Shown here piece by piece: positions 18,774-46,288 of a DNA stretch of 64,000 nucleotides. The stretch covers positions 5,611 to 69,610 of the forward strand of contig CAZNIA010000001.1 of assembly GCA_964572995.1 (NCBI GenBank), read 5' to 3'. Both the position numbers and the translations under genes were made by a program. This DNA comes from Candidatus Woesearchaeota archaeon. GTDB lineage: Archaea; Nanobdellota; Nanobdellia; Pacearchaeales; GW2011-AR1. How positions within the stretch are numbered: position 1 is the first letter of the stretch; every line of letters starts with the position of its first letter. The notes below the pieces were generated by a model that searched no databases, was not told the DNA's origin, and saw only the letters and a list, made by a program, of their open reading frames with translations.

Positions 18774-21700
18774 TTATTCATTCTTTTGTTTCTTCTGTTC
18801 TTCTTTCTCATAAACTTCTCTTGCTTTCTTTGCTTCTTCAACTGATTTTTGTATTTCTGCTGTATCAAGCAATTTTTTCTCTACTTTCTTTGGCTTCTTT
18901 CCTATCTTTTCCCACTGCTTTTGTAATCTTGGCCCAAGGCCTTCAACATAAATATCTACGACAGAAAAATTACCTGTCATGAGCTTATCTTTAATTAATT
19001 TTAATTCCATCTTTAAATCAAAGATATCTACTTTTTCTTTTTCAAGTTGATTTATTTGGTTTTCAAAATCATCTATTATATCATTGTATTTATTGTATTT
19101 TTCTAGTTCCTCATCTGAAAGTCTTCTTGTGTTGTGAAGAATCGGTCTAAAGTTTACAAAGTAAGGTTTACCCTTGTTGTATTCTGCATTCTGGAACATT
19201 GCAACCCCGACTTCGGCTCTTACCAAAGATTTCAAAAATTCCTCCCCATATTTTGTTTTGATTCTCTCTAAATCAGATTCTTCTATTGTTCTTGTTTGAA
19301 TTTCTGTGTTTATATTTGCTTTAACTTCTCCGACAAAATCGCTTAATACCTGTGAAATTAAAACCACTCCCATACCCCACTTTCTGAATTCTCTACAAGC
19401 TCTTTCGATTTGCAAGAAACCTTCTCCACTTCCACCAAATTTTGAAAGCAATCTATGGACTTCGTCAAAAACAAGAAGAACTTTTAATTCCTGAGCTTCT
19501 TTTGGATCTGATTTGAATATTTGTCTTATTACACTTGCAATAAACATATCTATATCTTTTGGATCAAGTTTATTTAATGCAAATATTTGTATCTGTCCTG
19601 GATGAATATACTTCTCTATTTCTATTACTTCTCTTGCATGTGAAATTTGTCGTATGTTTCCGGGGAATGCTCTTGCATCAGTTGATTTTAACCCAAATTT
19701 AGGATAAAATGAAATCATTTTTTTATCTTCGCATTTTCTTAATAATCCAGACCACTGAGCGGTTGGATCAAATACAATTACAGCAACATTTTTTAAAAGA
19801 GCCTCTTCTACTAAAACCTGCGCAGAAATACTTTTACCCATACCTGTAGCTCCTGCAACAATCGCGTGAGTTTTCAATCTTTCTGGTTCTAAATATACTG
19901 GATGCTTAGATTCAGCAATCAAACCCAATTTAAAGAAACTTTTATCTGCTTTTGGCAATGTGGACAAGTCAAGAGAGATACCATATCTTTTTCTTTTTTC
20001 CTTGTATCTTTTATAAATAAATATATTTAGTAAAACAAAACTAATAAATGAAAGTATTGCAAAAAATACCCAAAGAGGTATTCCTAAAAAAGAATAAAGA
20101 TAAATCGGTCTACGTACTGAAAAAGGGGCCGTAACACTTGAAGAAAAACCAAGATATTTTGCATTAACTACAAACAAATAATCCCCTTCTGAAAAATTAG
20201 AAGGAATGTTTATATGGTCTACTATAGATAATGCCTTCCTTATTTCAACTTCTTGTATTTCTCTATGGTAAACTGTTGAATCTTCTTCTCCAATAATAAG
20301 TTTTTCTAGAACAACCTTGTATTCTTGATCTATTAAAAGATTTTGAAGATTAAGCTTGTAATTAAGATTCTCTCCTGGATTCACAATATTCTTAAACAAA
20401 TCTATAGATAATAAAAGGGTCTCTATTGGAAGTCTGTTCTCAATAATTTTTACTTTTACAGGTATTTCTTTTTCAACATCTCCGGATAACTTTAAAATAC
20501 CTTCATAAGTGCCGATTGGTTTTGTTCCATAAAAAGTTATTTTTATTTCTTCTCCTTTTCCTGGTTCAAGTATCAAAGCATCTCTATCTAACTTTACGAA
20601 ATCGCTTATATCTGAAGATAATGAAATAAGAAGATTCATATTTGTAGTTTTAAAATTATATATTCCGATAGTATCATCTACGAATGTATTCTGTCTTATT
20701 TCTTTGAAGATGTCTTTTGTACTTATCCAATAATCTTCCCCTGTTCTTTGTATTTCTTCTATAATCTTTTGTATCTCTTCTCCTGGCTCTTCTTCATATG
20801 GGCCTGTTGGATAAGGATTATTTGTTTGACCTAAATTAACTAAAGTCATAGTTATATTGTGATTGAAATTGGTTGTATTCTGATAGAAGAATAATATTGC
20901 ATAATAATTGTTAAAACCCAATGTTGTAGCAATTATTGGATAATTTTGTGGAATAATCTCCGGAGTAAGGGAATAATAACCATTCTCATCAGTAACTGTT
21001 GATTCTCCTGCAAGGTAAATATTTACTCCGTCCAATGGATTGCCTAATGTATCATTTACATATCCCCACACAAATGGGAAAATTACTTCTCCTGTGCTTG
21101 GAGTAGCCGAATGCATAGTTATATTTTTGTAAATCATATAATTTGAGAAGTTAACTGTGATATTTGAAAAATACTCGTCATACCCTTCTCCATATGCTAT
21201 TAAATTATGGCTTCCAGGCATTAAGTCTAAAGTAATATTGTATATCCCATTTGAATCAGTAGTATAATTTGATCCTGCAATTACAACAGTTATATTTTCT
21301 AATGGTACCCCGTTGGTATCCTTAACATAACCATGAACTGTTGTAGCAATAACTTCCCCCATTCCTCCTTCTGGACACTCATCGTAAGGATCTGTGAAAA
21401 AATAATATCTTTGTGTTGAAGAAGGCAACATAGGTAAAAGCATCTGAAAGTTAACTGTTGAATCTGGACTATACCCTTTTTGTAATTCTTCTATGTGTGT
21501 TACATAAACTAAATTTCCTTCTCCGTCTACCAAAATACCCAAATCAAAGACCCCATTTTCTCCATCCCATCTGTAAGTATGTGTTGAAGGAATGTTTGTT
21601 ATATTTGTAGGCCCCACCATAATCCACATAGTGTCCAAAAAAGTATTAGAAGCACAATCCACACCTGTGCTACACCCTGTCCAAGCATCTATTTGAGAAG

Positions 21701-22136
21701 TGTCCGCAGGGGTCAGAGATTCAAAATCTATTGTTGAAGATGTTGATGCATAAATTTCTCTTCCACCTACAGCATCCTGTTGCATGCAATCAAAAAATAG
21801 TCCTGCAGAAGTTATTTCTCCTGAAGTAATATCCTCAAATATTTGCTCTGTATATCCTGGAACTCTTAAAGCTAAACCATATAATCCATGCCAATAAAAA
21901 GTTTGAAATTTTAATGTTACATTTAATTCGGAAATATATCCTGCTTCTGAAGGGATATAGGTTAAAAATCCTGTAGAAAGTATATTGGTTATAAACATTA
22001 TACATATTATAAATGAGGAAAGCAAAGCAAAAGTCAATAATAAAAACTCCACTAAATCTTCTTTTCTTTTATTTTTTAATTCCTTATTTGCAATAACTAT
22101 TGTATTTTGAGAAGCTCTTTCCTCTTTTTTATTCAT
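18774..22136 (-). CDS. membrane-spanning FtsK/HerA-superfamily (VirB4/DUF87-like) P-loop ATPase (1120 aa). It has an N-terminal signal-anchor, a ~650-aa extracellular region with two carboxypeptidase-regulatory-like (transthyretin-fold) domains, a central TM helix and a C-terminal cytoplasmic ATPase
   Basis: Walker A is AIVAGATGMGKS and Walker B is VLLVFDEVHRLL; an R...SQ segment (RKWGMGVVLISQ) is also present. The TM helix is IPLWVFFAILSFISFVLLNIFIY. CarboxypepD_reg-like motifs are VHGYVKDTNGVPLENITVVIAGSNYTTDSNGIYNI and VWGYVNDTLGNPLDGVNIYLAGESTVTDENGYYSL. Confidence 0.8.
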   Translation of the reverse strand: MNKKEERASQNTIVIANKELKNKRKEDLVEFLLLTFALLSSFIICIMFITNILSTGFLTYIPSEAGYISELNVTLKFQTFYWHGLYGLALRVPGYTEQIFEDITSGEITSAGLFFDCMQQDAVGGREIYASTSSTIDFESLTPADTSQIDAWTGCSTGVDCASNTFLDTMWIMVGPTNITNIPSTHTYRWDGENGVFDLGILVDGEGNLVYVTHIEELQKGYSPDSTVNFQMLLPMLPSSTQRYYFFTDPYDECPEGGMGEVIATTVHGYVKDTNGVPLENITVVIAGSNYTTDSNGIYNITLDLMPGSHNLIAYGEGYDEYFSNITVNFSNYMIYKNITMHSATPSTGEVIFPFVWGYVNDTLGNPLDGVNIYLAGESTVTDENGYYSLTPEIIPQNYPIIATTLGFNNYYAILFFYQNTTNFNHNITMTLVNLGQTNNPYPTGPYEEEPGEEIQKIIEEIQRTGEDYWISTKDIFKEIRQNTFVDDTIGIYNFKTTNMNLLISLSSDISDFVKLDRDALILEPGKGEEIKITFYGTKPIGTYEGILKLSGDVEKEIPVKVKIIENRLPIETLLLSIDLFKNIVNPGENLNYKLNLQNLLIDQEYKVVLEKLIIGEEDSTVYHREIQEVEIRKALSIVDHINIPSNFSEGDYLFVVNAKYLGFSSSVTAPFSVRRPIYLYSFLGIPLWVFFAILSFISFVLLNIFIYKRYKEKRKRYGISLDLSTLPKADKSFFKLGLIAESKHPVYLEPERLKTHAIVAGATGMGKSISAQVLVEEALLKNVAVIVFDPTAQWSGLLRKCEDKKMISFYPKFGLKSTDARAFPGNIRQISHAREVIEIEKYIHPGQIQIFALNKLDPKDIDMFIASVIRQIFKSDPKEAQELKVLLVFDEVHRLLSKFGGSGEGFLQIERACREFRKWGMGVVLISQVLSDFVGEVKANINTEIQTRTIEESDLERIKTKYGEEFLKSLVRAEVGVAMFQNAEYNKGKPYFVNFRPILHNTRRLSDEELEKYNKYNDIIDDFENQINQLEKEKVDIFDLKMELKLIKDKLMTGNFSVVDIYVEGLGPRLQKQWEKIGKKPKKVEKKLLDTAEIQKSVEEAKKAREVYEKEEQKKQKNE

Positions 22137-22257: not shown

Positions 22258-22968
22258 ATGGCTTTATCAAAAATGTTTAAAAAAAACAATGCTCCTGATG
22301 AATTACCTGATTTGGCAATAGATGAGTTAAAGAAAGATTTAAAGAAAGATTATTCTGAAAAAGAAGAGCCAAAAGAGACTCTCCCTGAATTAAAAAAAGA
22401 AATCCCTTCTACTCCAGAGATAGTTGAAGAAAAGCCTGAAGAAGAAAATACTGGTGAAGAAGAGAAAGAAGCTACTGAAGATCCAGAAGAGAGCGTTGAA
22501 GAAAACGAAGAAGGAGATTCTGAAGAAAAGCCTGAAGAAGAAAATACTGGTGAAGAAGAGAAAGAGATAAAACCTTCCGAAGAAGAAAAAATTAATTTAG
22601 AAAAAAGTTTCTTTAACCCGCTTATAAATGAATTGAAAAAAGAAAATTTTGATCCTGCAAAAATAAACGCCTGGTATCAAAAAAGATTTTCTGATAAGAG
22701 TGCTATTGAAGAAATGAAAGAATATTGGGAGAAGCAAAAAAATGAATTTATAACAGAGACAGTTGAAAAAGAGTTTAAAGCAAGAATAAATGAAAGGATG
22801 CATCATCTACAAAAATTAGAATTAGAATGGCAAGAGATATATGTAAAACTAGTTGAAAAGGAAGAAGAAATGAAAAAAGAAGAAAAAAGTATAAAAAAAA
22901 TAATAAAAGATTTTTCAGAAGTAGTTAAAAGAAAAGGAAATCTTAAAAAAGCGCATAAGTCTAGATAA
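22258..22968 (+). CDS. highly acidic E/K-rich protein (236 aa) with an internal tandem repeat
   Basis: The 45-bp segment gaagaaaagcctgaagaagaaaatactggtgaagaagagaaagaa occurs twice with a 93-bp period (22425 and 22518), giving the EEKPEEENTGEEEKE repeat. Confidence 0.5.
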   Translation: MALSKMFKKNNAPDELPDLAIDELKKDLKKDYSEKEEPKETLPELKKEIPSTPEIVEEKPEEENTGEEEKEATEDPEESVEENEEGDSEEKPEEENTGEEEKEIKPSEEEKINLEKSFFNPLINELKKENFDPAKINAWYQKRFSDKSAIEEMKEYWEKQKNEFITETVEKEFKARINERMHHLQKLELEWQEIYVKLVEKEEEMKKEEKSIKKIIKDFSEVVKRKGNLKKAHKSR

Positions 22969-22971
22969 TTA

Positions 22972-23277
22972 ATGAAAAAAAAGAAATCTCACAAAACAGC
23001 AATTATTGTCTTTTGGGCGCTGGTTATATTACTTATTATATTAACTTTAATTAATTTAAAATTTTGGAAATATTTAGAAAAAAAAGAAATAGTTTTTGTT
23101 CCTCTTCAGGATAGGTGTTCAATAATGTTTGATAATCTTCTACATACGATTAAAGATGAATCTGGATGTGAAAATTACTGTAGAGCAGAATGTATTACTA
23201 GAGGTATTGAATTTTATAAAACAGAATTTTATTTAAAAGAAGATTCTTGCAATATCTGTAACTGTTATTGTAAATAA
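22972..23277 (+). CDS. small membrane-anchored Cys-rich protein (101 aa)
   Basis: N-terminal TM IVFWALVILLIILTLINL and C-terminal CENYCRAECITRG...CNICNCYCK with 8 Cys. It starts 4 nt after the upstream stop. Confidence 0.45.
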   Translation: MKKKKSHKTAIIVFWALVILLIILTLINLKFWKYLEKKEIVFVPLQDRCSIMFDNLLHTIKDESGCENYCRAECITRGIEFYKTEFYLKEDSCNICNCYCK

Positions 23278-23279
23278 AA

Positions 23280-23891
23280 ATGGGAGATATAGAAGAAGAA
23301 TATTTAGAGGGTATTGAAAAAGAGGAAGAGTTGTTTCTAGAGGGACTTAAAAATAATAAAAACCTTGCTGAACTTGAAGAAAAGTATTCCAAAAAAGTAA
23401 AAGAGATAAGAAGAATCTATGAAAAATCATTGAAAAAAGATCTTTATAGTAAAGATGAGATAAAAAACTTGAAAAAAAAGGAGAATAACGTTAAAGAAGT
23501 CGATGAATTTAAGGCAAAGGGTTTTGAACTTGAAAAAAATAAGATTGAAAAAACAAAAATAAAGTTGGAATCTGCAAATTACAAGATTTCAAGAAAAATA
23601 AAAAATTTCTTTTATAAATTTATCCCAAACAAAAGTATATATTTTGTACATAAGTTAAAGATATCTTTAAGGGCAATTCATAAAACATTTAAAATAAGAT
23701 TAAAAAGAGTTATTACAAAAATACTCAATAATTTAAACACAGTGTGGGTGTATATTAAAGAGGGATTTATGAAGGTAGTATCTGAAATTAAAAGAGCATC
23801 TTTATATTTCAAAAAAAACAAGAAAGACAATAAAAAAGAGGATAACATTCAAAAAGAGGAAAAGAAAGATGAAGATGGAAATAAAGAATAA
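23280..23891 (+). CDS. K/E-rich coiled-coil hypothetical protein (203 aa)
   Basis: ORF in a tight + strand cluster; low complexity. Confidence 0.4.
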   Translation: MGDIEEEYLEGIEKEEELFLEGLKNNKNLAELEEKYSKKVKEIRRIYEKSLKKDLYSKDEIKNLKKKENNVKEVDEFKAKGFELEKNKIEKTKIKLESANYKISRKIKNFFYKFIPNKSIYFVHKLKISLRAIHKTFKIRLKRVITKILNNLNTVWVYIKEGFMKVVSEIKRASLYFKKNKKDNKKEDNIQKEEKKDEDGNKE

Positions 23892-24264
23892 TCCAAAGAT
23901 GAATATAAAAAGAGAAAAAATTGAGGATATCTTAAAAGATATCTCAAAAAATGTAAGGGAAATATTCTTGTTGTTTATTTCTGAGAATCTTATTGATCTT
24001 AAGAAAATAGAATTTAAGGGAGATTTAGAAAGCAATATAAAACAAAAAATAGAAGACGCTATTAAAGACAGATACCAAAATATGAATGAAACCTTCTCTG
24101 AATTAAGAAAATCTGGAGTGGATTTAGGAGTATTAAATTTTAAGCTAGTGATGATCCCCTTAAAAATAAAGGTATTTCTTGCAACTTATGAAAAAAAAGA
24201 TGCAGAAAATGTAATTAATCGTATTAAAGATATAGAAAACGAGATAAATAAAATAAAAAACTAG
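23869..24264 (+). CDS. hypothetical K/E-rich protein (131 aa)
   Basis: ORF overlapping the upstream gene by 23 nt. Confidence 0.35.
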   Translation: MKMEIKNNPKMNIKREKIEDILKDISKNVREIFLLFISENLIDLKKIEFKGDLESNIKQKIEDAIKDRYQNMNETFSELRKSGVDLGVLNFKLVMIPLKIKVFLATYEKKDAENVINRIKDIENEINKIKN

Positions 24265-25931
24265 TCATCATCTTTATCTCTTCTTCTAGCAATTATGAAG
24301 AATATTATAAATATCAAAATTATAAATATCAATCCAAATATAACATAGGTTAATGGATTAAATCTTTGATAATTCAACTCCATCCTTACTTCTTTTGTAT
24401 TTACTAATGAATCTCTTCTTTCCCCATAGTAAGAAACAACTTTAATGAAATTGTTTTTAGTTAAATCCGATTCAGTTAAAATTTCATACATGTATATTCT
24501 TTTTGATCTCTTTGGAAGTAATTTTTCTGATTCCTCTGTCCCAATTGTTTGAGTAATTCTATTTATAACAATATCCTTTAATTCAACGCTTGCCCAACAT
24601 TCTACAGACACTTTATTTTTTAATTTCACAACAAAAGAGTTTTCCTGTTTGTTGTATTTTAACCATTTTATATCTAATTCGCATCTGTCTATAATATTAA
24701 CCATCTCAATTTCGTATGTTCCTTGTAATACTCTATCCAGAGAAGCAGGTGATTCCCCATACAAAACATAAACTTCTGCAGATGCTTCTTCTCCAGAAAT
24801 AACCACTCCTTCATAAACAACTGTTTTAAAATCTCCTGGAGCAATAAATACTTCTTCTAAATCTCCTACTCTAATTGGGCCTGAAGGAGTAATAATTGTT
24901 ATTGTTCCCCTAAGATATGCTGGCATATTTGAATCACTTTTGTAAGTTATTTCCAATCTTGAACTTGCTTTATTGTATTTTATTGAATAAACTGAAATAT
25001 TTAAATTTGGAACAGGAATATAAAATAAATCCAAACCCTCAACAGGAGAAACTCCTGATGTCCTCTCTCTTGCACTTCTAGCAAACTTAACCATTACATT
25101 TATTCCCGTAGATTGTCGTATGTTTGTTGCTGCTCCAATAAGTTCATTTCCAATTAAAACTCCGATCTCTATTTCAGAAGATTTTATGTATTCTGCTATT
25201 TTTGGTGGAACGTTTTCTCTTCCTGTAAACAACATTGTGTTTTTACCTTGCATAATTTCTTTTTCTATAAATTCTCCGTTGCTTAAAATAATCTGATTTA
25301 TAGAGCCAACTGTAGAATATTTTTTTACTATCTCTATATTATCTTGAAATCTATCTCCTGTATTTATTATTTCTGGATTATACTTAGACAATGTCTCTGT
25401 TACTTCTGAATCAACATAACCATATAAAATTATTTTATCTGCTCTTCCTTGTAGAATTGAATCTATCTCGTCTATATTTCCTCTATTTGCTAAAAAAACC
25501 CAAGAATCTGTAGCTAATGAATATGCAACTACTGCCATAGAATTATATCCATAAGCATCTCCTACAACTATGAAGTTTCTTATATTTGGGAGTTCTCTGA
25601 TAAGTTCAAGATTAGCAGAAGAAACTTCTATTTCTTCTACAGAATTAAATCCTTTTGACCTGGCTAATGAGGGGTAATTGAAAACAAGGGGATTGTCTTT
25701 TGAAGAGATTATAATTAAATCATTATTTTTATTTATTCCGTCAAGCAAAGTCGGCCCATGTGATGTACTTACAAGAAAATCGGAATTTAATCCCCTTAAA
25801 TTAGCATACAAAACTGCTGAATAAACATCCTGCCAATCTGCAGAATTAGAAACAACATAATCTTCTGCATAAACTAAAGATAATGTAAAAACCAAACATA
25901 AAGCAAAAACAAATACAAATCTCTTTTTCAT
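24261..25931 (-). CDS. exported protein (556 aa) with signal peptide and C-terminal TM anchor
   Basis: N-terminus MKKRFVFVFALCLVFTLSLVYA and C-terminal LTYVIFGLIFIILIFIIFFIIARRRDKDDD. It lies directly downstream of giant gene 2. Confidence 0.6.
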   Translation of the reverse strand: MKKRFVFVFALCLVFTLSLVYAEDYVVSNSADWQDVYSAVLYANLRGLNSDFLVSTSHGPTLLDGINKNNDLIIISSKDNPLVFNYPSLARSKGFNSVEEIEVSSANLELIRELPNIRNFIVVGDAYGYNSMAVVAYSLATDSWVFLANRGNIDEIDSILQGRADKIILYGYVDSEVTETLSKYNPEIINTGDRFQDNIEIVKKYSTVGSINQIILSNGEFIEKEIMQGKNTMLFTGRENVPPKIAEYIKSSEIEIGVLIGNELIGAATNIRQSTGINVMVKFARSARERTSGVSPVEGLDLFYIPVPNLNISVYSIKYNKASSRLEITYKSDSNMPAYLRGTITIITPSGPIRVGDLEEVFIAPGDFKTVVYEGVVISGEEASAEVYVLYGESPASLDRVLQGTYEIEMVNIIDRCELDIKWLKYNKQENSFVVKLKNKVSVECWASVELKDIVINRITQTIGTEESEKLLPKRSKRIYMYEILTESDLTKNNFIKVVSYYGERRDSLVNTKEVRMELNYQRFNPLTYVIFGLIFIILIFIIFFIIARRRDKDDD

Positions 25932-25965
25932 ATTAGTAACCTTGAATGTAAATATTTAAAACTTT

Positions 25966-28900
25966 CTAGGCTTGAGTATATAATGAATTTTGTGTAACTG
26001 AAACTTCGTAGCCTTTTTCTGGTTCAATTATAAAATTGGTTCCTATATAAGGAGGTATCCAAGGGACAGGCGAACCTGTTGAAATGTATCCCTGGGATGT
26101 TTGGTTAAATGAATTCCAATTAGTTACAGCATCTGAGTAAGAAACAGAAGAAATTAAGTTATATGCATTTGTTTTAGAAGAGTTATAATATAAAGAAACC
26201 CAGTTTTTTCCAAAAGAAGTTGAATTCTTTATTAAATCCACCTCTACTGGAGATTTTACTGCTCCTACAAGGCTCCAATTTGTAAAGATTGGAGAAGTTA
26301 AGTTGAGATTCATCTCATAACCTCTGCCGTCCTCTAGGTTGAAATTGCAGTTATTGAGGGTACATCCCGGATAATCTGGACAAGAGAAATTATTACATGT
26401 AACTCTTTTTTGTATTGTGCTATTCCACATTGTAAAGGAAGTTATATTGTTTATCTCGCCAAGAGCTTCTTTTGAATCTGTAATATTTGTTTCAATGTAT
26501 AAACCCATCCAGTTTCTGGTATTTATTGAGGGCTTGCTTTGTATATAATACACTGTTTTTCCAAAAGTAGAATTAGTAAAATTTTCTGCTATAGGGTTCC
26601 AAGAAGAAATTCTATAAAACCTTCTTCTACTCTGATTAGCATTTGAGTCAGTATAATTTAAGTTAAATGTCTCATTCAGCAATGCAAATGCAATTGAAGC
26701 ATTCTCTGTGTAATATATTCTATATTTATATGCATGAGCAGATGTGTTCCAGGATAAAAAAATATCTCCTGTCCCGTCATTCTTTGTTTGAGAAATATCT
26801 GTTAAAGGGGAATCAGGAGGTAAGAAAGCTGCAAAAGTGAAATTAGTTGAATTAAATGCAAAATTTCCTGAATTATCAAAACATAAGATGTTCCATAGAT
26901 AATATCCGTCTGTTACAACATTCTTATTTGAAAAATTAAGAGAAGCCCCTTTTTCAGGATAACTTGTTGTTTCATTTGCGTGCCATATACCATCCCAGGT
27001 TCCGTAAAGAGTACAATTTACCACATCATTAGAATCATTCACAGAATAATTTAAAAATGGAATTAAATAACCTGTAAAGTTTGAATTATTTTCTGTAAGT
27101 AAATTTACATTTGGAGGGATTGTATCCAATGTTATCTTTCTTGTTTCTGTGGTGTTTGAATAATTTACAACATCAAAAATAGTTACATTATAATAATAAG
27201 AACCCTCTGGAAGATTTGTCCAATTTATTATTCTTCTTGAATCTGTATAGGTTGAAGAATTGTAAACTGTATAATTAGAATAATATAAATTAAATGTGAT
27301 ATTTACCTCATTCTCTTCTATAACAGACGTATTTACATATACCCAAGTTTGGGATTTGTTTGAAGTATCATTTTCTGTCGATCCTGAATAACTTATCAGA
27401 GGGTAAGTGCTATCAAAAGTGAAAGTAAAATTATTGAGTGCCCAACCATCATATCCCAAAGAGTCATTACATTTAATATTCCATAAATAAACTCCATCTT
27501 CATACAAAGCAAGTGAAAAGTTTATTGCATAGTATAGTTCTTCATCGCCTTCATTATAACTGGGTTCAGGATAAATTAATTTTCTTATCCAGACATCATC
27601 AAATTGTTCTGTAGCCCATGCATGAAGCCCTGATGTCCCTGAAGCATAAGTTGAATCTGTTAAATTAAATATTAAATTTCCATCTTCATAAGCAACAATT
27701 CTATTTCCAAATGTATTTAATTCTAATTCATAATCTGTTCCAACAGAAGGGGAAAATCCATAACTTCCTAAATTAGAAAGTGTGTGTCCGGTTGAAGATA
27801 ATTGTAAATAGTTATTTTGATAACCATAAACATATCCATTTCCACTAGCAGAAGGCATTCTTGCCATTAATTTCCAATCTGAATCACTTGTCTCATGATT
27901 TACAATTGCTCTTATAGAATGATTTCCTGTAACTGTTGTTCTTGTTAAATCACTATCCCCATCTAGAGTATTTCTTACTCTGTTATTTAATATTGCCCAA
28001 GTTCCCCTTGTCTCTGTCCAGCCATTCCCAACTGTATCACTATTTGGTCTGTTAAAATCCTCAAAAAATTCAAAAACATTACTTCCATTATTTTTAGGAT
28101 TTGAAGCGTCTGAATTAGAATGATAAATATAATAATTATCGTCAAATTTTCCAGCAGAAATAGGGGCTTGAATTCTAAACCAAATTTCTGTACTGGGGTC
28201 ATCAAATGCTGTTGAATTATATCTATCTAATTCAATATTTTGAGAGCCGTTCCAATAAACAATTCTTAAATCATCTCCATTATCTAAGAAATCAGAACCC
28301 GTTGTATCCAAAGTTAATAACATTGAATAATTCTGCTCAAGGGTATACAAACTTGGATTGGTAATATTTATAAGTTTTCTCTTGCTCCAGCCTGAACTAT
28401 ACCAATTTATTTCTTTTGTCTGATTATTGTGCCATCCTCCATTCCAGGTTCCATATAGTGAACAATAACTTATTCCGTCTGCATCTGAGAAATTAAAATG
28501 AAATTCCTCATCATCAAAACTTGTAAAGTAAGAATTATCTTCCGGAGAGAATAAACTTACAGCAGGACCATAGATTGAAATTGAAAAAGTTCTCTTTGCT
28601 AGAGCAATATTTCCAAAAGTATCATTAGAATAAAAGTAAAGTGTATGAGTTGCTTCTGTTGTGTCAAAGGTAGTATTTGTTCCGCAGGATATTGATTGGT
28701 TTGCTTGATTATCCAAATTCCACCAACACATACTTAAACCCACAACATTATCATAAATTGTATAATTAAGGGGCAGACTTGTATTATATGCATAAACTTT
28801 TGGTTCTGGAGAGATTATAATAACAGTGGGTCCTGTATTATCTAATCCAATTTTTCTTGTGGATGTAAAATTAATATTATAAGCGAGGTCAAGAATAGTC

Positions 28901-38827: not shown

Positions 38828-38828
38828 A

Positions 38829-40034
38829 ATGTATAAAAATATAAACTTAATGAAGATGGGAATGATTTTCTTAATAGTTATTGTATTAGTTTCTTTTATT
38901 TCTGCTGCAAACATTGGAATAAGTCCAGCAAATGTTTATTTCAAAGATGTTTTAAGAGGAGGTTATGCTGAAAGAACAGTAATAATTACAATAGATTCTG
39001 AAGAACCCACACAAGTAAGTTTAACTCCAAGAGGAGAGATAGCAGAATGGATTTCCTTTGATGAAAAGGAGTTTGAAGTTTCAAAAGAAAATCCATATTA
39101 TCTCAAGATAATCATACAACCTCCTGTAGATATGCCAAATGGAAATTACTCTGGATTCTTGAGAGTTGCAACTTCCAGCGATTCTAAAGGAGCAGAAGGA
39201 CAAGCAACTGGAATAATAAATGCTGCACTTGATTTATACTCAGAAGTTGAAATAACTGACGTAGAATATTCTTTATGTAGAGCATGGAACTTTAATGTAG
39301 AATCAGCTGAAAAAGGAGATGATATCTTATTTAAGCTGAATATTTATAATCAAGGTAATATACGATTATATCCAACAATTAAAATTGATATTTGGGATAG
39401 AGATAGAATAAGCATAATAAAACAAGTGGAATTTTCCAATGATATGGTGATTCCAACTACTGAAAAAGAGATAATAATCCCGGTTAGTTCCTCTGATCTT
39501 GAAATTGGGCAATATTGGGCAGAAGTGACTTCTGTGGAATGTTATGCCTCTCAAACACTAACCTTTGATGTTCTTGAAGAAGGAGCCTTAAAGGCTCAAG
39601 GAACTCTTTTAAGTGTAATTTCTCCTCCTTGGATAAAGATAGGAGATACAACATTAATTGAAGCTGTATTCGAGAACACTGGTGAAAAAACTGTAAACGC
39701 GCGTTTCAAAGGGGAAATTACTCTTGGGAGTAAGATAGTTCAAATTTTAGAAAGTGAAATAAGTTCTGTTGAAATTGGAGAGAGAGAAACATTCAAATTC
39801 TATTTTACTCCAAAAGAAGAAGGAAGATACATTGTAAATGGGGTGGTTTTTTATGATGGAAAAAGAACTTTTGAAAAAAGCACTGTGATAAATGTTGAAA
39901 AAAGCGGCATTGACTGGAGTAAATTAAAGATTTATTTGATATATTTAATTTTAATTGTAGCAATAGCTTACTTAGCTTATAAGATAAAAAAAGAAAAATC
40001 TATTGAAATAAAAAAATGGAGGAGATTAAAATGA
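38829..40034 (+). CDS. exported protein (401 aa) with signal peptide and C-terminal TM anchor
   Basis: N-terminal MGMIFLIVIVLVSFISAA and C-terminal IYLIYLILIVAIAYLAYKIKK. Confidence 0.6.
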   Translation: MYKNINLMKMGMIFLIVIVLVSFISAANIGISPANVYFKDVLRGGYAERTVIITIDSEEPTQVSLTPRGEIAEWISFDEKEFEVSKENPYYLKIIIQPPVDMPNGNYSGFLRVATSSDSKGAEGQATGIINAALDLYSEVEITDVEYSLCRAWNFNVESAEKGDDILFKLNIYNQGNIRLYPTIKIDIWDRDRISIIKQVEFSNDMVIPTTEKEIIIPVSSSDLEIGQYWAEVTSVECYASQTLTFDVLEEGALKAQGTLLSVISPPWIKIGDTTLIEAVFENTGEKTVNARFKGEITLGSKIVQILESEISSVEIGERETFKFYFTPKEEGRYIVNGVVFYDGKRTFEKSTVINVEKSGIDWSKLKIYLIYLILIVAIAYLAYKIKKEKSIEIKKWRRLK

Positions 40035-42046
40035 ATAAAAGTATTAATGTTTTAATCTTGTTTGTAGTCCTATCGCTCTTAACTAGCTCTTTTGTTTCTT
40101 CTGCTTCTGCATTTGTTATAACAGCAAATTATGATTTTACAAACTCTTCATTTATAGATGGTAAAGTTTACAAAACAGATTCTGTTGTTCTTAGAATTAA
40201 AACAAATTCAGAGACAGAATGTGTTTATGGAAACTCTTACTCTCTTTCAAATAATTTTGATGGAGAATATGGTTTAACTCATGAGGCATACATCGAAAAT
40301 CTAGAAGAAGGATTCCATGAGTATTATATAAGGTGCGGGGAGATATATAATCCAATAATGAGAATAGGGTTTGCTACAAGCATTCCTATTTATGCTACAA
40401 TACAAATATCTGAAGAACCTCCTCTTAAAGAAGGCAAATATAAAATTAATTTAATTACATCTAAAACTAGTTTAGAGGCTCCAACACTTGAATATAGCTT
40501 TGATGAACTCGTATATAAGCCTATTTCTTTGAAAGGAGAAGGAGAAAACTGGGAAGGTAATTTAATTATCCCTGCATCTGTTGGAGAAAGTGTTTGTTCT
40601 TTCAGATTTAAGGCAAAAGATTTGGCTGGAGAAGAAGGAACAAAAATTGTTGGAGACACTTCATTTATCGTAGATAGTTTAAAACCTTCAACAATAAGCA
40701 TACTAAATGCAATAGGGTATCAAGGACAAATAAAATTAAACTGGTTTTCTGATGAAAAAGTTAAAGAATTTAATATATACAAGTCTGAAAATCCTCAATT
40801 AGATTATACTAACTTTTATGAAACGTCTTCAAAAGATTATTTTTATGATACTAATGTAGAAAAGGGCAAAACTTATTATTATAGAGTTGCAGGAATAGAC
40901 GAGGCTGGAAACGTCGGAGATTTGTCAATAGAAGTATACGCCACCGCATTATTAACAAATTCCTCTGGAACTTCTGGACTCAATCCAAGTTTAATAGGAA
41001 AAGTAGATAATTTCATATCTGAAATAAATTCAGTTATAAATAATATTGAAAACATAAACAACCTTCTTGAATTAAAAGAAGAGAAAGAAAAGGAATTATT
41101 TAAAGAAATTAAATTAGATAAAGAAATAGAATCATCATTATCTGAATTAAACTCTTTAAAAAGAGATGTAGGTATTTATAAGTTACAAGACTTGAGTTTA
41201 GAAGAATTAAATAAAAAATTAGATTCTTCTAATCTTAGATTGAGTATAATTAAAAAGAAAATACCTGAAGATATTATTATTAAAGAAGAAAAAGAAATAT
41301 CTAGACAATTAGATGAGGGGAACCTACAAAAAGTCTTTTTAGAATATTCTCAAAATTTGGAATCAGATTACAAAAAGGATATAAGCGAAACATTGAAGAT
41401 TATTAAAGAAAATGAAATTAAGATAACGGGGAGAATATATTCTTTAGAGATATTGTACTTAGATGGGACAAAAAAACAAATAACATTATTTAAAGAAGAA
41501 ATTGAAAGTGATTTAGAAGAAACAGAAAATTTGAAATTCATTTTGGTTGTTCCTAAAGAGGTTGCAGAAAAATCTTCTGAGATGAAGATATTAAATTTAG
41601 AATATGAAATAATCAAAGATGACCCTGTTCTATCTTTTAATTCGGATATAAAAAGCATAAGTTATTATTTAAGTAAAGAGGTGGCTACAAATTCTTTAGA
41701 AGATATTTTAATCTCTCCTGTGAAAATAAATGTTGAAGAATCTTCTAAGATAACAGGGAATTCTATATTTAATGGAGAATCCAAGAATCCATTTGGAATA
41801 ATTGTCTTGGCATTATTTGCTACAATATTGGCAGTATATCTTTTAAAGATAAAAAAAGAGCCAAAATTAAAACCCCTTCTGACAATAATTGAGGATATAA
41901 AGAAGTCTAAAGAGCTTTTAAAAGAGGGAAAGGAAAAAGAGGCTTTAAATTTGTATAATAATGCAAAAGAGAGATACAAAGACCTTAATGAAAAAGAAAA
42001 AAGAATGGTAATGAAAAGTATGAATAATATCGAGAGAGGAGGATAA
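40016..42046 (+). CDS. exported FN3-like-domain protein (676 aa) with coiled-coil region, C-terminal TM anchor and conserved cytoplasmic tail motif
   Basis: Signal peptide. FN3-like LNWFSDEKVKEFNIYKSEN...GKTYYYRVAGIDEAGNVGDLS. TM helix IIVLALFATILAVYLL followed by ...EKEALNLYNNAKERYKDLNEKEKR. Confidence 0.6.
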   Translation: MEEIKMNKSINVLILFVVLSLLTSSFVSSASAFVITANYDFTNSSFIDGKVYKTDSVVLRIKTNSETECVYGNSYSLSNNFDGEYGLTHEAYIENLEEGFHEYYIRCGEIYNPIMRIGFATSIPIYATIQISEEPPLKEGKYKINLITSKTSLEAPTLEYSFDELVYKPISLKGEGENWEGNLIIPASVGESVCSFRFKAKDLAGEEGTKIVGDTSFIVDSLKPSTISILNAIGYQGQIKLNWFSDEKVKEFNIYKSENPQLDYTNFYETSSKDYFYDTNVEKGKTYYYRVAGIDEAGNVGDLSIEVYATALLTNSSGTSGLNPSLIGKVDNFISEINSVINNIENINNLLELKEEKEKELFKEIKLDKEIESSLSELNSLKRDVGIYKLQDLSLEELNKKLDSSNLRLSIIKKKIPEDIIIKEEKEISRQLDEGNLQKVFLEYSQNLESDYKKDISETLKIIKENEIKITGRIYSLEILYLDGTKKQITLFKEEIESDLEETENLKFILVVPKEVAEKSSEMKILNLEYEIIKDDPVLSFNSDIKSISYYLSKEVATNSLEDILISPVKINVEESSKITGNSIFNGESKNPFGIIVLALFATILAVYLLKIKKEPKLKPLLTIIEDIKKSKELLKEGKEKEALNLYNNAKERYKDLNEKEKRMVMKSMNNIERGG

Positions 42047-42047
42047 A

Positions 42048-43931
42048 ATGAATAGAAAAAATATTTTAATTGTAACTTTATTTCTTTCTTTAGTTATACT
42101 TCTAATGAATATTATTTCTGCAGCACATTACATAGTGGGTATTGTGGAAGATGCAAAAGATGGAACCAGTTCTAATGATCATACAATTTTATTATGGAAT
42201 CCTTCTGTTGGAATATTTGAAAATCTCACAGACCTAATTGGACCAAATGGAAACTCTCATGTGAACAATATTTATATGATTGATTGTGAACTTCTTCCAA
42301 GTGGATGCAATATAGGAGAGAATCTAACTTTAAAGGTAATAAATAATGGGGAGAATTATATATCTGAAGAAAAAAATGTGACTGTGACTGGTGCCGGATA
42401 TGACCTTGTTAGCAATATAACATTAAACTCCCCTCCTGATGTAGGCCTAATTTTCCCTTACTCTTTTGCGAATATCTCTAGTTCAGAAATTAATTTTAAC
42501 TGTTCTATCTTTGACTTTGATTTAAACTTAAAGGAAGCGAGTTTATATGGAACTTGGGATGGAGGATGGAATTTAAATGAAACTAAGGGTATTATCTCAG
42601 AAGGAGGATTTATTACATTTAATAAAAATCTTTTGGAAGGCTTGTATGAATACAATTGTATGGCAACGGACAACCTTTTAACTTCATCCTTTGCAACAGA
42701 AAATATTACTTTCACTATTGATTTAACAAAACCGAATATTGAATCTATCTTTGTAAATTCAACTTATTCATGCGGCCAATCAAATTTTGTCAGAGTAAAT
42801 TGTACAACTTATGATACTTTACTTAATGTAGATAAGGTTATTATTCAAACTATTTCTCCTTCTGAAACAAAAAATTATACTGCCTCTCTTCTTACAAGTA
42901 ATACTTATTATTCAGATATTTTGTTGGATGAGGTTGGAGGCTGGACATTTAATTGTATTTCAAATGATACTGCTGGAAACGTAAACAATTTAACTTCTCA
43001 AATAGTGAATGTCTTCTCTAATTCTCCTGAATTATATATCAATTTTACAACTATTAGGTTAAGTGAAGAAAAACCTATAGAAAACCAAGAAATAAAAATT
43101 AATGCAGTTATTGAAAATTTTGGTTGTTCAATTGCTGAAAACGTATTGGTTAGTTTTTTTGAAGGCGACCCTTCTGAATCTGGAGATAATATTTATAACT
43201 ATACTTTAAACATAAGTTCTCTTTCAGCTTTTCCTGCAAATATTTCATGGATTGCTAAAATAGGTCCAAACAATATATTTGTTATTGCGGATTATGATAA
43301 TAAAATAAATGAAGAAAACGAGACTAATAATAAAGCAAATAACACCTTTTCTATAAATGCCTGGCAAGATATTTATGGAAATATTAGCTTAGATAAAATA
43401 ATTGGGGGGGATAATATTAGCATAAAGAAATGGTTCAATGAGAGTCAGCTTGAAGGCCATGTTTTCATAACAGATTCTGAATGCGAAGTGGATTGGCTTT
43501 CCTTGCAAGCCCTGGGGAAGTCTAAATCTGGTGAAGATAGTTCTAATGATTTTTTAGAAATTGATGAAGTATTAAATATGATTAATTTTGAAGATTCAAT
43601 ATCTAATGTCTTTTCAGATAATCAAAATCCTAAGAACACAAAAAATATGTTAATTTATCAAAAAGAGATAGAAAATGTTCCAGTCATAAAATCGACTAAT
43701 AATTCTAATTTCATAACAGGGCTCCTATGGGATTTTTCTGATGATAGAGAAGGAGAAAATGGAGAATTTGATACAATAGATAAAGAAGATATAGTTTTTG
43801 TTGCAGAAGTCAATAAAAGTTCTGAAGGAAATTATGGACTTTACGATTATGAGATAAAAATACCTTCAAGATTAAGAGAGTATAATAATTTAGATAATGA
43901 AGAGGTGTATCTTTATTACAATTTAAATTAA
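42048..43931 (+). CDS. secreted protein (627 aa). Its N-terminal domain is paralogous to 37628..38827, and its C-terminal CARDB-like module plus conserved tail is shared with giant protein 1
   Basis: The C-terminal ~250 aa (from ...EIKINAVIENFG to SFFEGDPSESGD, and STNNSNFITGLLWDFSDD...YGLYDYEIKIPSRLREYN) aligns with the giant 1 C-terminus (...STNNSNFVTGILWDFSDD...YGTYDYELRVPARLREYN). Confidence 0.7.
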   Translation: MNRKNILIVTLFLSLVILLMNIISAAHYIVGIVEDAKDGTSSNDHTILLWNPSVGIFENLTDLIGPNGNSHVNNIYMIDCELLPSGCNIGENLTLKVINNGENYISEEKNVTVTGAGYDLVSNITLNSPPDVGLIFPYSFANISSSEINFNCSIFDFDLNLKEASLYGTWDGGWNLNETKGIISEGGFITFNKNLLEGLYEYNCMATDNLLTSSFATENITFTIDLTKPNIESIFVNSTYSCGQSNFVRVNCTTYDTLLNVDKVIIQTISPSETKNYTASLLTSNTYYSDILLDEVGGWTFNCISNDTAGNVNNLTSQIVNVFSNSPELYINFTTIRLSEEKPIENQEIKINAVIENFGCSIAENVLVSFFEGDPSESGDNIYNYTLNISSLSAFPANISWIAKIGPNNIFVIADYDNKINEENETNNKANNTFSINAWQDIYGNISLDKIIGGDNISIKKWFNESQLEGHVFITDSECEVDWLSLQALGKSKSGEDSSNDFLEIDEVLNMINFEDSISNVFSDNQNPKNTKNMLIYQKEIENVPVIKSTNNSNFITGLLWDFSDDREGENGEFDTIDKEDIVFVAEVNKSSEGNYGLYDYEIKIPSRLREYNNLDNEEVYLYYNLN

Positions 43932-46288
43932 TCTTTCTTAACGGGCATTGTACTTTTAATAAACTGATCTATTATAATAGCAATCTTGGACTTATCCTTT
44001 TCTGCTGCTATTTTTTTAGATAAATCTTGTGATACCTGTTCAGCCCATTTTGCAATATCATTTTTATTTGAATTTACATGTAGAAGAAATATTTCCTGAT
44101 CTAATCCAGGCAGAGTTTCTTTTAATTCTTTAAGTGTAGATATCATTATTCCATTATCAAATGTAAGAGGTTTAAGTATTTTGGTTCCAATATTTTCTAC
44201 TTCTGCTTTTTTCTCTTCTTTTTTTTGTTTTTTCTGCTCTTCTTTTTCATAAACAGCCCTTGCTTTCTTTGCTTCTTCTACTGATTTCTCTATTTCTGAT
44301 ACATCTAATAACTTCTTCTCTACTTTCTTTGGTTTCTTTCCTATTTTCTCCCATTGTTTTTGTAATCTTGGACCTAGTCCTTCTACATAAATATCAACAA
44401 CAGAGAAATTTCCCGTCATCAATTTATCTTTAATAAGCTTTAATTCCATCTTGAAATCAAAGATGTCTATTTTTTCTTTATCTAACTGTTCAACTTGGTT
44501 TTCAAAATCATCAATTAAATCATTATACTTATTGTATTTCTCTAATTCTTCATCTGAAAGCCTTCTTGTATTATGAAGAATTGGCCTAAAATTAATAAAA
44601 TATGGTTTACCCCTATTGTAAGAAGTATTCACAAACATTCCTACCCCTACTGAAGCTTTAACTAGTGATTGTAAAAATTCTTCTCCATATTTTACTTTTA
44701 TTCTTCCTAAATCGCCTTCATCTCTTGTCCTCATTTGAATCTCTGTGTTTATATTTGCTTTTATTTCTCCTACAAAATCACTTAATACCTGAGAGACCAA
44801 CATTACTCCTATTCCCCACTTTCTAAATTCTCTACAAGCCCTTTCAATTTGCAAAAAACCTTCTCCATTTCCACCAAATTTTGAAAGCAACCTATGGACT
44901 TCATCAAAAACAAGAAGAACTTTCAAATCCGGTGTTTCTTTTGGATCTGACTTAAATATTTGTCTTATTACGCTTGCAACAAAAATATCCATATCGTTTG
45001 GATCTAATTTGTTTAATGCAAAAATCTGTATTTGTCCTGGATGAATGAATTTTTCTATTTCAATTATCTCTCTTGCATGAGATATCTGACGTATATTCCC
45101 AAAAAATGCTCTTGCATCTGTTTGCTTCAATCCAAAATTAGGATAATAAGAAAGCATTTTTTTGTCTTCACATTTTCTAAGCATACCTGACCATTGGGCT
45201 GTGGGATCAAAAACAATCACTGCTACATTTTTCAGAAGAGCTTCTTCGATTATTACTTGCGCTGCAATACTTTTGCCTCCACCTGTTGCTCCTGCAACAA
45301 TTGTATGTGTCTTAAGTTTATCTGGTTCTAAACAAGCCTTGAGCTTAGTCTCTGCAATTTTTCCCAAGATTAAAACTTCTTTGCTTGGTAAAGGTAATTT
45401 TTTTGTGTCCAACTCCATCCTATATTTTTTTGAAAGCTTAATGTGTCTTCTTATCAACAGATAAACAATTAAAAAAAGCAAGATAAACCCCAATCCGGAA
45501 AACAAAGCCCAAAGAGGAAGAAATCCAAAAATAACTCTGCTAAAAAATGGCTTTTTAATTATAAATTGGCTTAATGAAAAAATTGTTTCTCCAGAATAAG
45601 TTGCAAAAGTTTGTAATAAATATTCTCCTTTATCTGCCTGTTCTGGTATCTCGAATTTTCTAACAAGATAAAATGAACTTGTAAAATTAAATGATTCTTC
45701 TCCTAAGAAAAAGGATTCATTTTTTGAATTATTCAAATAATATCTAAGGGTTAAATTTTCTATTGGTCCTGATTTTATCCTATTTAAATAAATTTTAAAT
45801 CTCAATCCTTCATTTAATTTAAATGATTTTTTAAATGGTTCAGAATCTACAAAAAAAAGAGGGCTCAAATCAGAATCAACGATTCTTAATGTTATAGGAA
45901 GTTTATCTGTGATCCCTCCTGAAAGAGATAATTCTCCTGTATAATTTCCTATCTCTCCCCCTTTTATATAAAAATAGAAAGAAGTACTATTTTTTGGCGA
46001 TACCTCTATCCCAGAATAATCAAATTCTATGAAATCTGCTGCTGGCCCAGATACAGAAAAACCTACAGAAATTGATTGTGAATTTAAATTTTCTATTGTA
46101 ACAAAATCCTGGAACAACGTCCCTAATGCAACAGTTCTATCTATTTTACTTCTAGAAATAGAATAATGTTCTTTCTTTATTTCTTCTCCAAATGCAGAAT
46201 CTTCTGCAGATAAAAGAACTAAACTTAAATAAAATAAAATAACAAAAACGATACAGAATAGAGAGATATTTCTTTTAATTGAATTCAT
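43928..46288 (-). CDS. second membrane-spanning FtsK/HerA-superfamily (VirB4/DUF87-like) ATPase (786 aa). It has an ~245-aa extracellular N-terminal region, one TM helix and a cytoplasmic ATPase with a C-terminal extension
   Basis: Walker A is TIVAGATGGGKS and Walker B is VLLVFDEVHRLL. TM helix VIFGFLPLWALFSGLGFILLFLIVYLLI. The ATPase core is about 85-90% identical at the amino-acid level to 18774..22136. One ~85-aa stretch, ELEKYNKYND..PRLQKQWEKIGKKPKKVEKKLLD, is identical but for two conservative substitutions (I/L, V/I). Confidence 0.8.
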   Translation of the reverse strand: MNSIKRNISLFCIVFVILFYLSLVLLSAEDSAFGEEIKKEHYSISRSKIDRTVALGTLFQDFVTIENLNSQSISVGFSVSGPAADFIEFDYSGIEVSPKNSTSFYFYIKGGEIGNYTGELSLSGGITDKLPITLRIVDSDLSPLFFVDSEPFKKSFKLNEGLRFKIYLNRIKSGPIENLTLRYYLNNSKNESFFLGEESFNFTSSFYLVRKFEIPEQADKGEYLLQTFATYSGETIFSLSQFIIKKPFFSRVIFGFLPLWALFSGLGFILLFLIVYLLIRRHIKLSKKYRMELDTKKLPLPSKEVLILGKIAETKLKACLEPDKLKTHTIVAGATGGGKSIAAQVIIEEALLKNVAVIVFDPTAQWSGMLRKCEDKKMLSYYPNFGLKQTDARAFFGNIRQISHAREIIEIEKFIHPGQIQIFALNKLDPNDMDIFVASVIRQIFKSDPKETPDLKVLLVFDEVHRLLSKFGGNGEGFLQIERACREFRKWGIGVMLVSQVLSDFVGEIKANINTEIQMRTRDEGDLGRIKVKYGEEFLQSLVKASVGVGMFVNTSYNRGKPYFINFRPILHNTRRLSDEELEKYNKYNDLIDDFENQVEQLDKEKIDIFDFKMELKLIKDKLMTGNFSVVDIYVEGLGPRLQKQWEKIGKKPKKVEKKLLDVSEIEKSVEEAKKARAVYEKEEQKKQKKEEKKAEVENIGTKILKPLTFDNGIMISTLKELKETLPGLDQEIFLLHVNSNKNDIAKWAEQVSQDLSKKIAAEKDKSKIAIIIDQFIKSTMPVKKD

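Follow-up and report, generated by a model that had tools for sequence, protein, structure and literature searches.

A DPANN family of membrane-bound HerA-clade ATPases with fused ectodomains, encoded within a surface-protein island

The 64,000-nucleotide stretch of contig CAZNIA010000001.1 (Candidatus Woesearchaeota archaeon) that we analysed, hereafter called the window, contains two genes in which an extracellular domain, a single transmembrane (TM) helix and a cytoplasmic P-loop ATPase are joined in one polypeptide. We refer to their products as ATPase 1 and ATPase 2. A preliminary description of this DNA had proposed that the two genes are paralogs of the FtsK/HerA superfamily and part of a candidate novel ATPase-coupled surface or translocation system in a likely episymbiotic archaeon. 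Our analysis strengthens this reading, in which the activity is a prediction from sequence. The features of the two genes are listed here by window position and strand (aa, amino acids).

18774..22136, minus strand: ATPase 1, 1120 aa; N-terminal hydrophobic segment, tip domain, two CarboxypepD_reg domains, β-sandwich pair, TM helix, HerA-clade ATPase, helical tail
21990..22046, minus strand: ATPase 1, N-terminal hydrophobic segment, aa 31-49 (hydropathy)
21393..21962, minus strand: ATPase 1, distal 'tip' ectodomain, aa ~59-248 (~190 aa), with conserved Cys (hhalign to secreted paralogs)
20901..21341, minus strand: ATPase 1, two CarboxypepD_reg β-sandwiches, aa 266-412 (PF13620, E 2.2e-17; PF13715, E 2.1e-12)
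20097..20783, minus strand: ATPase 1, membrane-proximal β-sandwich pair, aa ~452-680, common to ATPase 2 and to the operon partner of ATPase 2 (46285..48324)
20016..20072, minus strand: ATPase 1, TM helix, aa 689-707 (hydropathy)
19137..19931, minus strand: ATPase 1, HerA-clade RecA-like ATPase domain with GATGMGKS, LLVFDEVH and CREFRKWG (Pfam, motifs)
43928..46288, minus strand: ATPase 2, 786 aa; signal peptide, β-sandwich pair, TM helix, HerA-clade ATPase, helical region, small C-terminal domain
45554..46183, minus strand: ATPase 2, ectodomain of two β-sandwiches, aa 36-245 (AlphaFold2, Foldseek)
45431..45514, minus strand: ATPase 2, TM helix, aa 259-286 (hydropathy, AlphaFold2)
44579..45391, minus strand: ATPase 2, RecA-like ATPase domain without HAS-barrel, aa 300-570
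44219..44554, minus strand: ATPase 2, helical region C-terminal to the ATPase, aa 579-690, conserved and rich in invariant residues (alignment, AlphaFold2)
43952..44167, minus strand: ATPase 2, small C-terminal cytoplasmic domain, aa 708-779 (alignment, AlphaFold2)

Both open reading frames (ORFs) match these coordinates and translate without interruption. The proteins are indeed paralogs, 58% identical over 659 aa, and the stretch they have in common runs from ~230 aa of ectodomain through the TM helix and the ATPase to the helical C-terminal region. Hydropathy analysis assigns each protein one strong TM segment in its interior (aa 689-707 in ATPase 1, aa 261-279 in ATPase 2), as well as a hydrophobic segment at either N-terminus. 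The single-chain AlphaFold2 model of ATPase 2, calculated with 46 homologs in the alignment, has a predicted local distance difference test (pLDDT) score of 83.6. It consists of β-sandwiches at residues 36-137 and 145-245, a TM helix at 259-286, a RecA-like domain at 300-570, a helical region at 579-690 and a small domain at 708-779. This last domain is absent from ATPase 1 of the window, yet it occurs in many ATPase-1-type relatives. Basic residues following the TM helix fit an orientation with the N-terminus outside and the C-terminus inside the cell; both ATPases are type-I membrane proteins with intact catalytic motifs. The hydrophobic segment at aa 31-49 of ATPase 1 has two possible readings, as a cleaved signal peptide or as a signal anchor that is kept. 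Ahead of it, ATPase 1 and its orthologs share 30 conserved, charged N-terminal residues (consensus ..IA..ELKK.K.E..), and these suggest that the second reading may be the right one. If the anchor is retained, both ends of the protein would be cytoplasmic.

The Walker A motif is GATGMGKS in ATPase 1 and GATGGGKS in ATPase 2; the two proteins have an identical Walker B, LLVFDEVH. Each scores 43 bits with Pfam DUF87, which represents the central domain of HerA (cut-off 23.2; E 5.5e-11 and 7e-11), and each also passes the cut-off of HerA_C. FtsK_SpoIIIE (17-18 bits against 24), AAA_10 (20-22 bits against 27.5) and TrwB_AAD_bind (16.5-17.3 bits against 20.5) remain below theirs. Searches of Protein Data Bank (PDB) sequences with the ATPase returned HerA proteins throughout, and HerA hexamers rank at the top when the ATPase part of the ATPase 2 model is submitted to Foldseek. 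Taken together, these matches bear out the proposed superfamily and narrow it to the HerA clade. None of the NCBIfam HerA equivalogs is passed (24-32 bits against cut-offs of 800-970). The best NCBIfam match is CedD, with 36.5 and 40.6 bits where 600 are required, and this match is partial, being centred around Walker A. PADLOC, run with both ATPases, the operon partner and a 556-aa anchored protein of the same island, gave only partial HerA matches (E 1e-13 to 6e-17). The ATPases belong to a distinct family inside the HerA clade of the FtsK-HerA superfamily, outside every named equivalog.

Canonical HerA proteins (Saccharolobus solfataricus, 4d2i; T. kodakarensis HerA-NurA, 9x1l) resemble the family in Walker A and B, in the motif E(G/F)RK(F/W)G and in the VSQ strand. 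They differ in what precedes the core. A profile of the family aligns with HerA only from HerA residue 117 onwards, so the HAS-barrel has no counterpart; a TM helix and a short linker stand in its place, preceded by an ectodomain. The family motif CREFRKWG aligns with HerA REGRKFG, which we take from the HerA literature to be the arginine finger. CREFRKWG, Walker A and Walker B are invariant across the 46 homologs, and these motifs together with the conserved domain predict that the protein is likely to be an active oligomeric ATPase. The HerA motif SQRPS is replaced family-wide by SQVLSD, with loss of the Arg and the Pro; in ATPase 2 it lies at aa ~499-504 (window 44790-44810, minus strand), and it is also present in ATPase 1.

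When 1.84 billion representatives of clusters at 50% identity were searched exhaustively with phmmer, using the ATPase domain as query, at least 354 clusters matched at E < 1e-30. More than 700 relatives were retrieved by a word-indexed search, all annotated 'DUF87' or 'hypothetical' and labelled Nanobdellota, Pacearchaeota, Woesearchaeota or Nanoarchaeia; more divergent members carry the labels Aenigmarchaeota and Altiarchaeota. Species-representative genomes hold 483 copies, the best 80 of which are all in metagenome-assembled genomes (MAGs) of DPANN archaea, and many genomes contain two copies ~20 kb apart, as the window does. Every named family member comes from a DPANN archaeon. Phage collections contained no match, and plasmid collections only two remote ones, both to a soluble haloarchaeal (Haladaptatus) DUF87 protein of different architecture. 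The window itself is chromosomal, with Orc1/Cdc6 and both PolD subunits encoded at 57.4-63.8 kb, and PolD is adjacent in the related locus L004 too. Given this proximity to orc1/cdc6 and PolD, the 483 copies, often two per genome, and the near absence of the family from phages and plasmids, the gene is a core chromosomal one and not part of a mobile element. The preliminary description knew of no characterised system of this architecture. In agreement, the one literature collection that we searched contained no description of a HerA-type ATPase with an ectodomain or of this DPANN gene cluster, which is absence of evidence; the family, large and restricted to DPANN archaea, is apparently undescribed.

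We define the family by a TM helix no more than ~60 residues upstream of the ATPase core, a membrane-proximal β-sandwich pair, the motifs DPTAQWSG, CREFRKWG and SQVLSD, and a conserved helical region after the ATPase; ATPase 1 and ATPase 2 have every one of these features. We derived architecture statistics from the best 148 representatives, 141 of which include sufficient upstream sequence for counting TM helices. A TM helix lies directly N-terminal to the ATPase in 136 of these 141, so the topology of ectodomain, single TM helix and cytoplasmic ATPase, suggested for the window proteins and also seen in the AlphaFold2 model, holds in nearly all of them. The extracellular part N-terminal to the ATPase ranges from 34 to 5,603 aa (median, 773 aa) and exceeds 2,000 aa in 45 and 3,000 aa in 27 of the 148 representatives, with the ATPase always at the extreme C-terminus. 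ATPase domains are 48-80% identical to the query, whereas the ectodomains differ hugely in length and domain content. The membrane-proximal β-sandwich pair is detectable in 107/148 representatives, among them 30 of the 45 giants, and ends a median of 41 residues ahead of the cytoplasmic domain. One representative, P0136, has eight CarboxypepD_reg repeats. Another, P0142 ('DUF87 domain-containing protein [Candidatus Woesearchaeota archaeon]'), is a fusion of 4,862 aa encoded by an intact gene on a 620-kb contig with housekeeping genes around it. The tether between TM helix and ATPase core measures ~20-45 residues, and in the model of ATPase 2 the helix ends ~20 residues before the first core strand. 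The missing HAS-barrel, this short distance and the near-constant arrangement make it likely that the ATPase sits flush with the membrane.

The ectodomain of ATPase 2 resembles tandem Ig, FnIII and ASH domains in Foldseek searches (RbmA, HYDIN). In ATPase 1, the two carboxypeptidase-regulatory-like β-sandwiches noted previously are confirmed by the PF13620 match listed above. The tip domain beyond them is homologous to two secreted proteins encoded nearby, paralogs A and B (hhalign probability 99.3%, E 2.3e-20, 176 columns). This homology rests on profile-profile comparison, as pairwise BLAST between the tip domain and the paralogs is weak (E 0.014 and 0.42). The AlphaFold2 model of the tip domain has a pLDDT of only 58, and a Foldseek search with this low-confidence model gave no match at E < 0.1.

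For the gene neighbourhoods, we compared the window with loci of relatives (numbered L001 and so on) in which the ATPases are 46-60% identical and at least 8 kb is available on both sides; 20 of these loci are of the ATPase-2 type and 10 of the ATPase-1 type. The neighbours of ATPase 2 in the window are the following.

46285..48324, minus strand: operon partner, 679 aa; signal peptide, Ig-like domains, the β-sandwich pair of the ATPases, TM helix, helical cytoplasmic tail
48452..48658, plus strand: conserved 68-aa protein heading a divergent operon; no family match; 54-69% identical in L004 and L005
48651..51971, plus strand: anchored surface protein, 1106 aa; PKD-like domains, C-terminal TM helix, common tail motif
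37162..43931, plus strand: surface-protein operon convergent with ATPase 2, six proteins; its first members are an AbrB/MazE-like protein of 52 aa and proteins of 104 and 399 aa, its last members a 401-aa anchored ASH/CARDB protein, a 676-aa anchored protein with the common tail and a 627-aa CARDB protein
37162..37320, plus strand: the AbrB/MazE-like 52-aa protein (Pfam, E 2e-4)

ATPase 2 forms an operon with an anchored protein, as had been noted: the stop codon of the partner overlaps the ATPase 2 start codon (ATGA). The β-sandwich pair of the partner matches those of both ATPases (E 1e-7 and 3e-5), and the partner is found in 15 of the 20 ATPase-2-type loci. The 68-aa protein is present in 12/20 and the 1106-aa anchored protein in 17/20. 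The partner and the anchored proteins at 40016..42046 and 48651..51971 have a juxtamembrane tail motif in common. The conserved ATPase-2-type module thus consists of the partner, the ATPase and the divergent operon with the 68-aa and anchored proteins. The 52-aa AbrB/MazE-like protein and the 68-aa protein, small conserved ORFs that each head a surface-protein operon, may be regulators.

The neighbours of ATPase 1 are as follows.

17531..18394, minus strand: cytoplasmic coiled-coil protein, 287 aa, downstream of ATPase 1; in 8/10 ATPase-1-type loci
18387..18716, minus strand: helical protein, 109 aa, between ATPase 1 and the coiled-coil protein
15206..15916, minus strand: secreted paralog A, 236 aa, tip-domain homolog
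16698..17486, minus strand: secreted paralog B, 262 aa, tip-domain homolog
15891..16526, minus strand: ArsR/HVO_A0114-type helix-turn-helix (HTH) regulator between the two secreted paralogs; in 7/10 ATPase-1-type loci
22258..24264, plus strand: divergent operon of four small proteins (236-aa acidic coiled-coil, 101-aa Cys-rich single-TM, 203 aa, 131 aa)
24261..25931, minus strand: anchored protein, 556 aa, signal peptide and C-terminal TM helix; the best-conserved accessory gene
25966..37008, minus strand: giant surface protein, 3680 aa (LamG, DUF2341, Ig; N-terminal signal or anchor only)
419..12253, minus strand: giant surface protein, 3944 aa, paralog of 25966..37008; C-terminus homologous to 42048..43931
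13979..15079, minus strand: nine-TM protein with HESGH (HExxH) motif; no Pfam or NCBIfam match; in 7/10 ATPase-1-type loci

The secreted paralogs occur in eight of the ten ATPase-1-type loci, the Cys-rich 101-aa TM protein in nine and homologs of the giant proteins in all ten. Together with the ATPase and the cytoplasmic coiled-coil protein, the secreted tip-domain paralogs and the giant adhesin-like proteins make up the conserved ATPase-1-type module. A homolog of the coiled-coil protein is encoded directly downstream of the 4,862-aa fusion (E 6e-26), and the 556-aa anchored protein, still 50-54% identical in distant relatives, remains near the ATPase. The free-standing giants of the window contain segments homologous to the ectodomains of giant ATPase fusions elsewhere: 25966..37008 matches fusion P0216 with 29% identity over 854 aa (E 7e-37), and another such match has 46% identity over 158 aa. 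The surroundings are therefore the surface-protein island that had been described, with two giant LamG/Ig/DUF2341 proteins, secreted paralogs, coiled-coil proteins and anchored proteins with a common tail motif. The linkage of the ATPases to surface proteins is conserved where the ATPases are only 46-60% identical, and it is covalent in many lineages. Searches of Pfam, NCBIfam and PDB sequences with ~25 neighbouring proteins found little but Ig, CARDB, PKD and LamG domains, the ArsR-type HTH, the AbrB/MazE-like protein and coiled-coil noise.

Several smaller observations concern these genes. By eye only, the N-terminal half of the 556-aa protein seems to have three α/β repeats of the cell-wall-binding CWB2 type, which no Pfam, NCBIfam or PDB sequence match supports. 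The nine-TM HESGH protein resembles a site-2/M50-type intramembrane metalloprotease, again by eye only. In L003-L006, short ATPase-2-type genes directly precede homologs of the 131-aa protein (23869..24264). The idea that this protein is homologous to the C-terminal helices of the ATPases was tested and is not supported. In L006, the 5' end of an ATPase-1-type gene (9525-12991) is broken into three ORFs by frameshifts or assembly errors, and a giant-protein gene also seems to be split (688 aa plus > 2125 aa).

The preliminary description named CedB, VirB4 and EssC as the nearest analogues. CedB and CedD of the crenarchaeal Ced system are HerA-clade ATPases with an N-terminal TM tether that function in DNA import; a VirB4-NTD-like cytoplasmic domain follows their TM segment, and their partners are the VirB6-like CedA and CedE and the pilin CedA1 (PMC11868833). 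The family is similar in being membrane-tethered and in having CedD as its best, far sub-threshold, NCBIfam match. It differs from Ced in its large ectodomain, in having only ~20-45 residues between TM helix and core, and in occurring in DPANN and not crenarchaeal genomes. Neither a polytopic VirB6-like protein nor a small two-TM pilin-like protein recurs in the conserved modules. Like VirB4 (TrwK) and VirD4/TrwB of type IV secretion systems (T4SS), which are ring ATPases on the cytoplasmic face of a trans-envelope machine, the family has a HerA/FtsK-type motor at the membrane, and in TrwB the TM segment is also N-terminal to the ATPase. However, there are no VirB2, B3, B6 or B8 homologs, the family is not carried by mobile elements, and we know of no VirB4 (TrwK) or VirD4/TrwB protein with a large ectodomain. 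FtsK/SpoIIIE and EssC/EccC of the type VII secretion system (T7SS) are more distant; EssC/EccC proteins have two TM segments and three FtsK-like ATPase domains in tandem instead of one, and the family lacks the FHA domain and the polytopic N-terminal membrane domain. CedB, VirB4 and EssC therefore stand as functional analogies, not as systems to which the family belongs. The anti-phage Sir2-HerA and DUF4297-HerA proteins are soluble and have a HAS-barrel and an adjacent effector, whereas the family is membrane-anchored and has no effector neighbour: no NurA, Mre11, Rad50, Sir2 or DUF4297 gene is adjacent in the window or in loci L001-L007 and L084. The family is outside the canonical HerA-NurA, Ced, T4SS, T7SS and anti-phage HerA systems. 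The novelty lies in the architecture of this membrane-bound FtsK-HerA motor, which is unprecedented, and in an accessory gene set that belongs to it.

The ATPase is coupled to the cell surface through the common ectodomain module, the conserved gene modules, the giant fusions and the homology between tip domain and secreted paralogs. What the motor does is a matter of analogy. To our knowledge, every characterised membrane-tethered FtsK-HerA ATPase is a translocation motor (FtsK/SpoIIIE, TrwB/VirD4, VirB4, EssC, CedB/D), and on this basis our leading, tentative proposal, to which we give a probability of about 0.4, is that the ATPase ring passes a polymer through the membrane; the polymer would most likely be nucleic acid obtained from or exchanged with a host or the environment. 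Six copies would form a ring through the conserved arginine-finger interface, lying flush on the inner membrane face. Their TM helices would bundle with the TM helices of the partner, in which the ectodomain module recurs, and the ectodomains would be the basal part or stalk of a surface structure for host contact. The secreted tip-domain paralogs and giant adhesins would attach to this structure, or be covalently fused to it in other lineages. ATP hydrolysis would then drive the polymer through the ring and the TM bundle. Nucleic acid is our single best guess for the cargo because such an organism is expected to scavenge nucleotides, as has been proposed for Pacearchaeota and Woesearchaeota (PMC8204110).

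Several points weigh against polymer translocation, a step that we draw entirely by analogy. Six or twelve single-pass helices are not a demonstrated channel, and the cluster proteins searched include no polytopic channel (VirB6/CedA-like), nuclease, DNA-binding protein or pilin. SQVLSD takes the place of the canonical HerA SQRPS. The co-encoded surface proteins have ordinary Sec-type signal peptides and so need no dedicated exporter. Finally, ectodomains of thousands of residues with adhesin-like repeats look more like a tentacle than a conduit.

If no cargo crosses the membrane, the ring could be an assembly or anchoring platform, VirB4-like as in pilus biogenesis, which we think unlikely. 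Such a ring would dock the common cytoplasmic tails and energise the insertion, ordering or polymerisation of surface components, with the secreted paralogs stacking on the ATPase 1 tip domain to form a filament or cap. The tip domain is homologous to these adjacent paralogs (linked in 8/10 ATPase-1-type loci), three anchored proteins have the juxtamembrane tail motif in common, translation of the partner is coupled to that of ATPase 2 and its ectodomain module is the same, and conserved cytoplasmic coiled-coil proteins follow the ATPases; all of this favours a platform. However, we identified no polymerisation signature (donor strand, sortase or isopeptide motif), the tip domain could be modelled only with low confidence and matched no structure, and giant fusions such as P0142 are nearly alone, with only the coiled-coil protein beside them, so that separately encoded subunits are not a universal requirement. 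A quite improbable alternative is a mechanical actuator or inside-out regulator of adhesins, in which sequential hydrolysis moves six TM helices and six adhesin arms that grip, pull, release or walk along the host surface. Mycoplasma mobile glides on giant surface legs driven by an internal F1-like ATPase, the legs and motor being separate proteins. The concept is similar, and the likeness, by analogy only, extends to giant adhesins combined with a RecA/F1-type ring ATPase in the cytoplasm of a host-associated cell with a reduced genome; there is no homology, and in many DPANN lineages arm and motor are one polypeptide. This covalent joining of an adhesin-like part, whose length varies from ~34 to 5,603 aa while the motor is conserved, argues for an actuator, as do distal stalks of β-sandwich repeats (P0136, with its eight CarboxypepD_reg domains) and a cluster in which no channel or cargo-handling gene was seen among the proteins searched. 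Against it, no FtsK-HerA member is known to work like this, one TM helix would transmit force poorly, and the short ATPase-2 type has the membrane-proximal module only, without an adhesin arm.

Two more mundane explanations would remove the need for any surface machine. In both sequence and structure, the closest matches are HerA proteins of the repair and anti-phage types, and one might suppose that an ordinary HerA, acting in HerA-NurA end resection or as an anti-phage Sir2-HerA or DUF4297-HerA, lies in a surface island by chance; the NCBIfam scores, the missing HAS-barrel, the membrane anchor and ectodomain, and the lack of NurA, Mre11, Rad50, Sir2 or DUF4297 neighbours contradict this, and we consider it very improbable. 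The chance that the fusion of ectodomain and ATPase is an artefact of a frameshift, misassembly or read-through gene call is negligible. Such errors do occur in MAGs, as the split 5' region in L006 illustrates, but the window ORFs are uninterrupted, AlphaFold2 models a continuous ATPase 2 chain with high confidence, and hundreds of independent assemblies have the same architecture, with the TM helix before the ATPase in 136/141 representatives.

Returning to polymer translocation and the arm movements set against it, both could be accommodated in a six-armed, ATP-driven contact organelle, in which a hexameric HerA motor, one polypeptide with a host-binding arm of up to ~5,600 residues, either pumps host nucleic acid or cytoplasmic material into the symbiont by way of its ring and TM bundle or moves the arms mechanically. 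We regard this broader picture as speculative and on the unlikely side. If true, it would be an engine of DPANN-host interaction without counterpart in known secretion, uptake or motility systems. How DPANN archaea attach to hosts and acquire nucleotides, lipids and building blocks is an open question, and for Woesearchaeota and Pacearchaeota no host-interaction machinery has been identified so far. The family is a concrete candidate, being conserved, energy-consuming, membrane-spanning and joined to fast-diversifying adhesin-like proteins, with defined accessory genes. With it, the FtsK-HerA superfamily comes to include proteins that have a TM helix in place of the HAS-barrel and fused ectodomains of up to ~5,600 residues.

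Scans of the window for tRNA genes and Rfam families found nothing. Window positions 56980-57361 are a probable replication origin, judging from the sequence features there: after an AT-rich stretch (GC ~0.24), TTTTCCACAGGAAATA occurs twice in direct orientation and without mismatch, at 57216 and 57313. The copies look like origin recognition boxes (ORB-like) and lie directly upstream of orc1/cdc6 (57362..58576), which is followed by the genes for PolD DP1 and DP2. At 55709, the minus strand has a third copy of TTTTCCACAGGAAATA with two mismatches. The stretch from the surface island to the origin region contains 54389..55024 (plus strand) and 55272..56207 (minus strand), which each encode an N-terminal coiled coil and a C-terminal HTH-like domain, the second matching HTH_36 (E 6e-5); homologs of this pair are present in six of the 20 ATPase-2-type loci.

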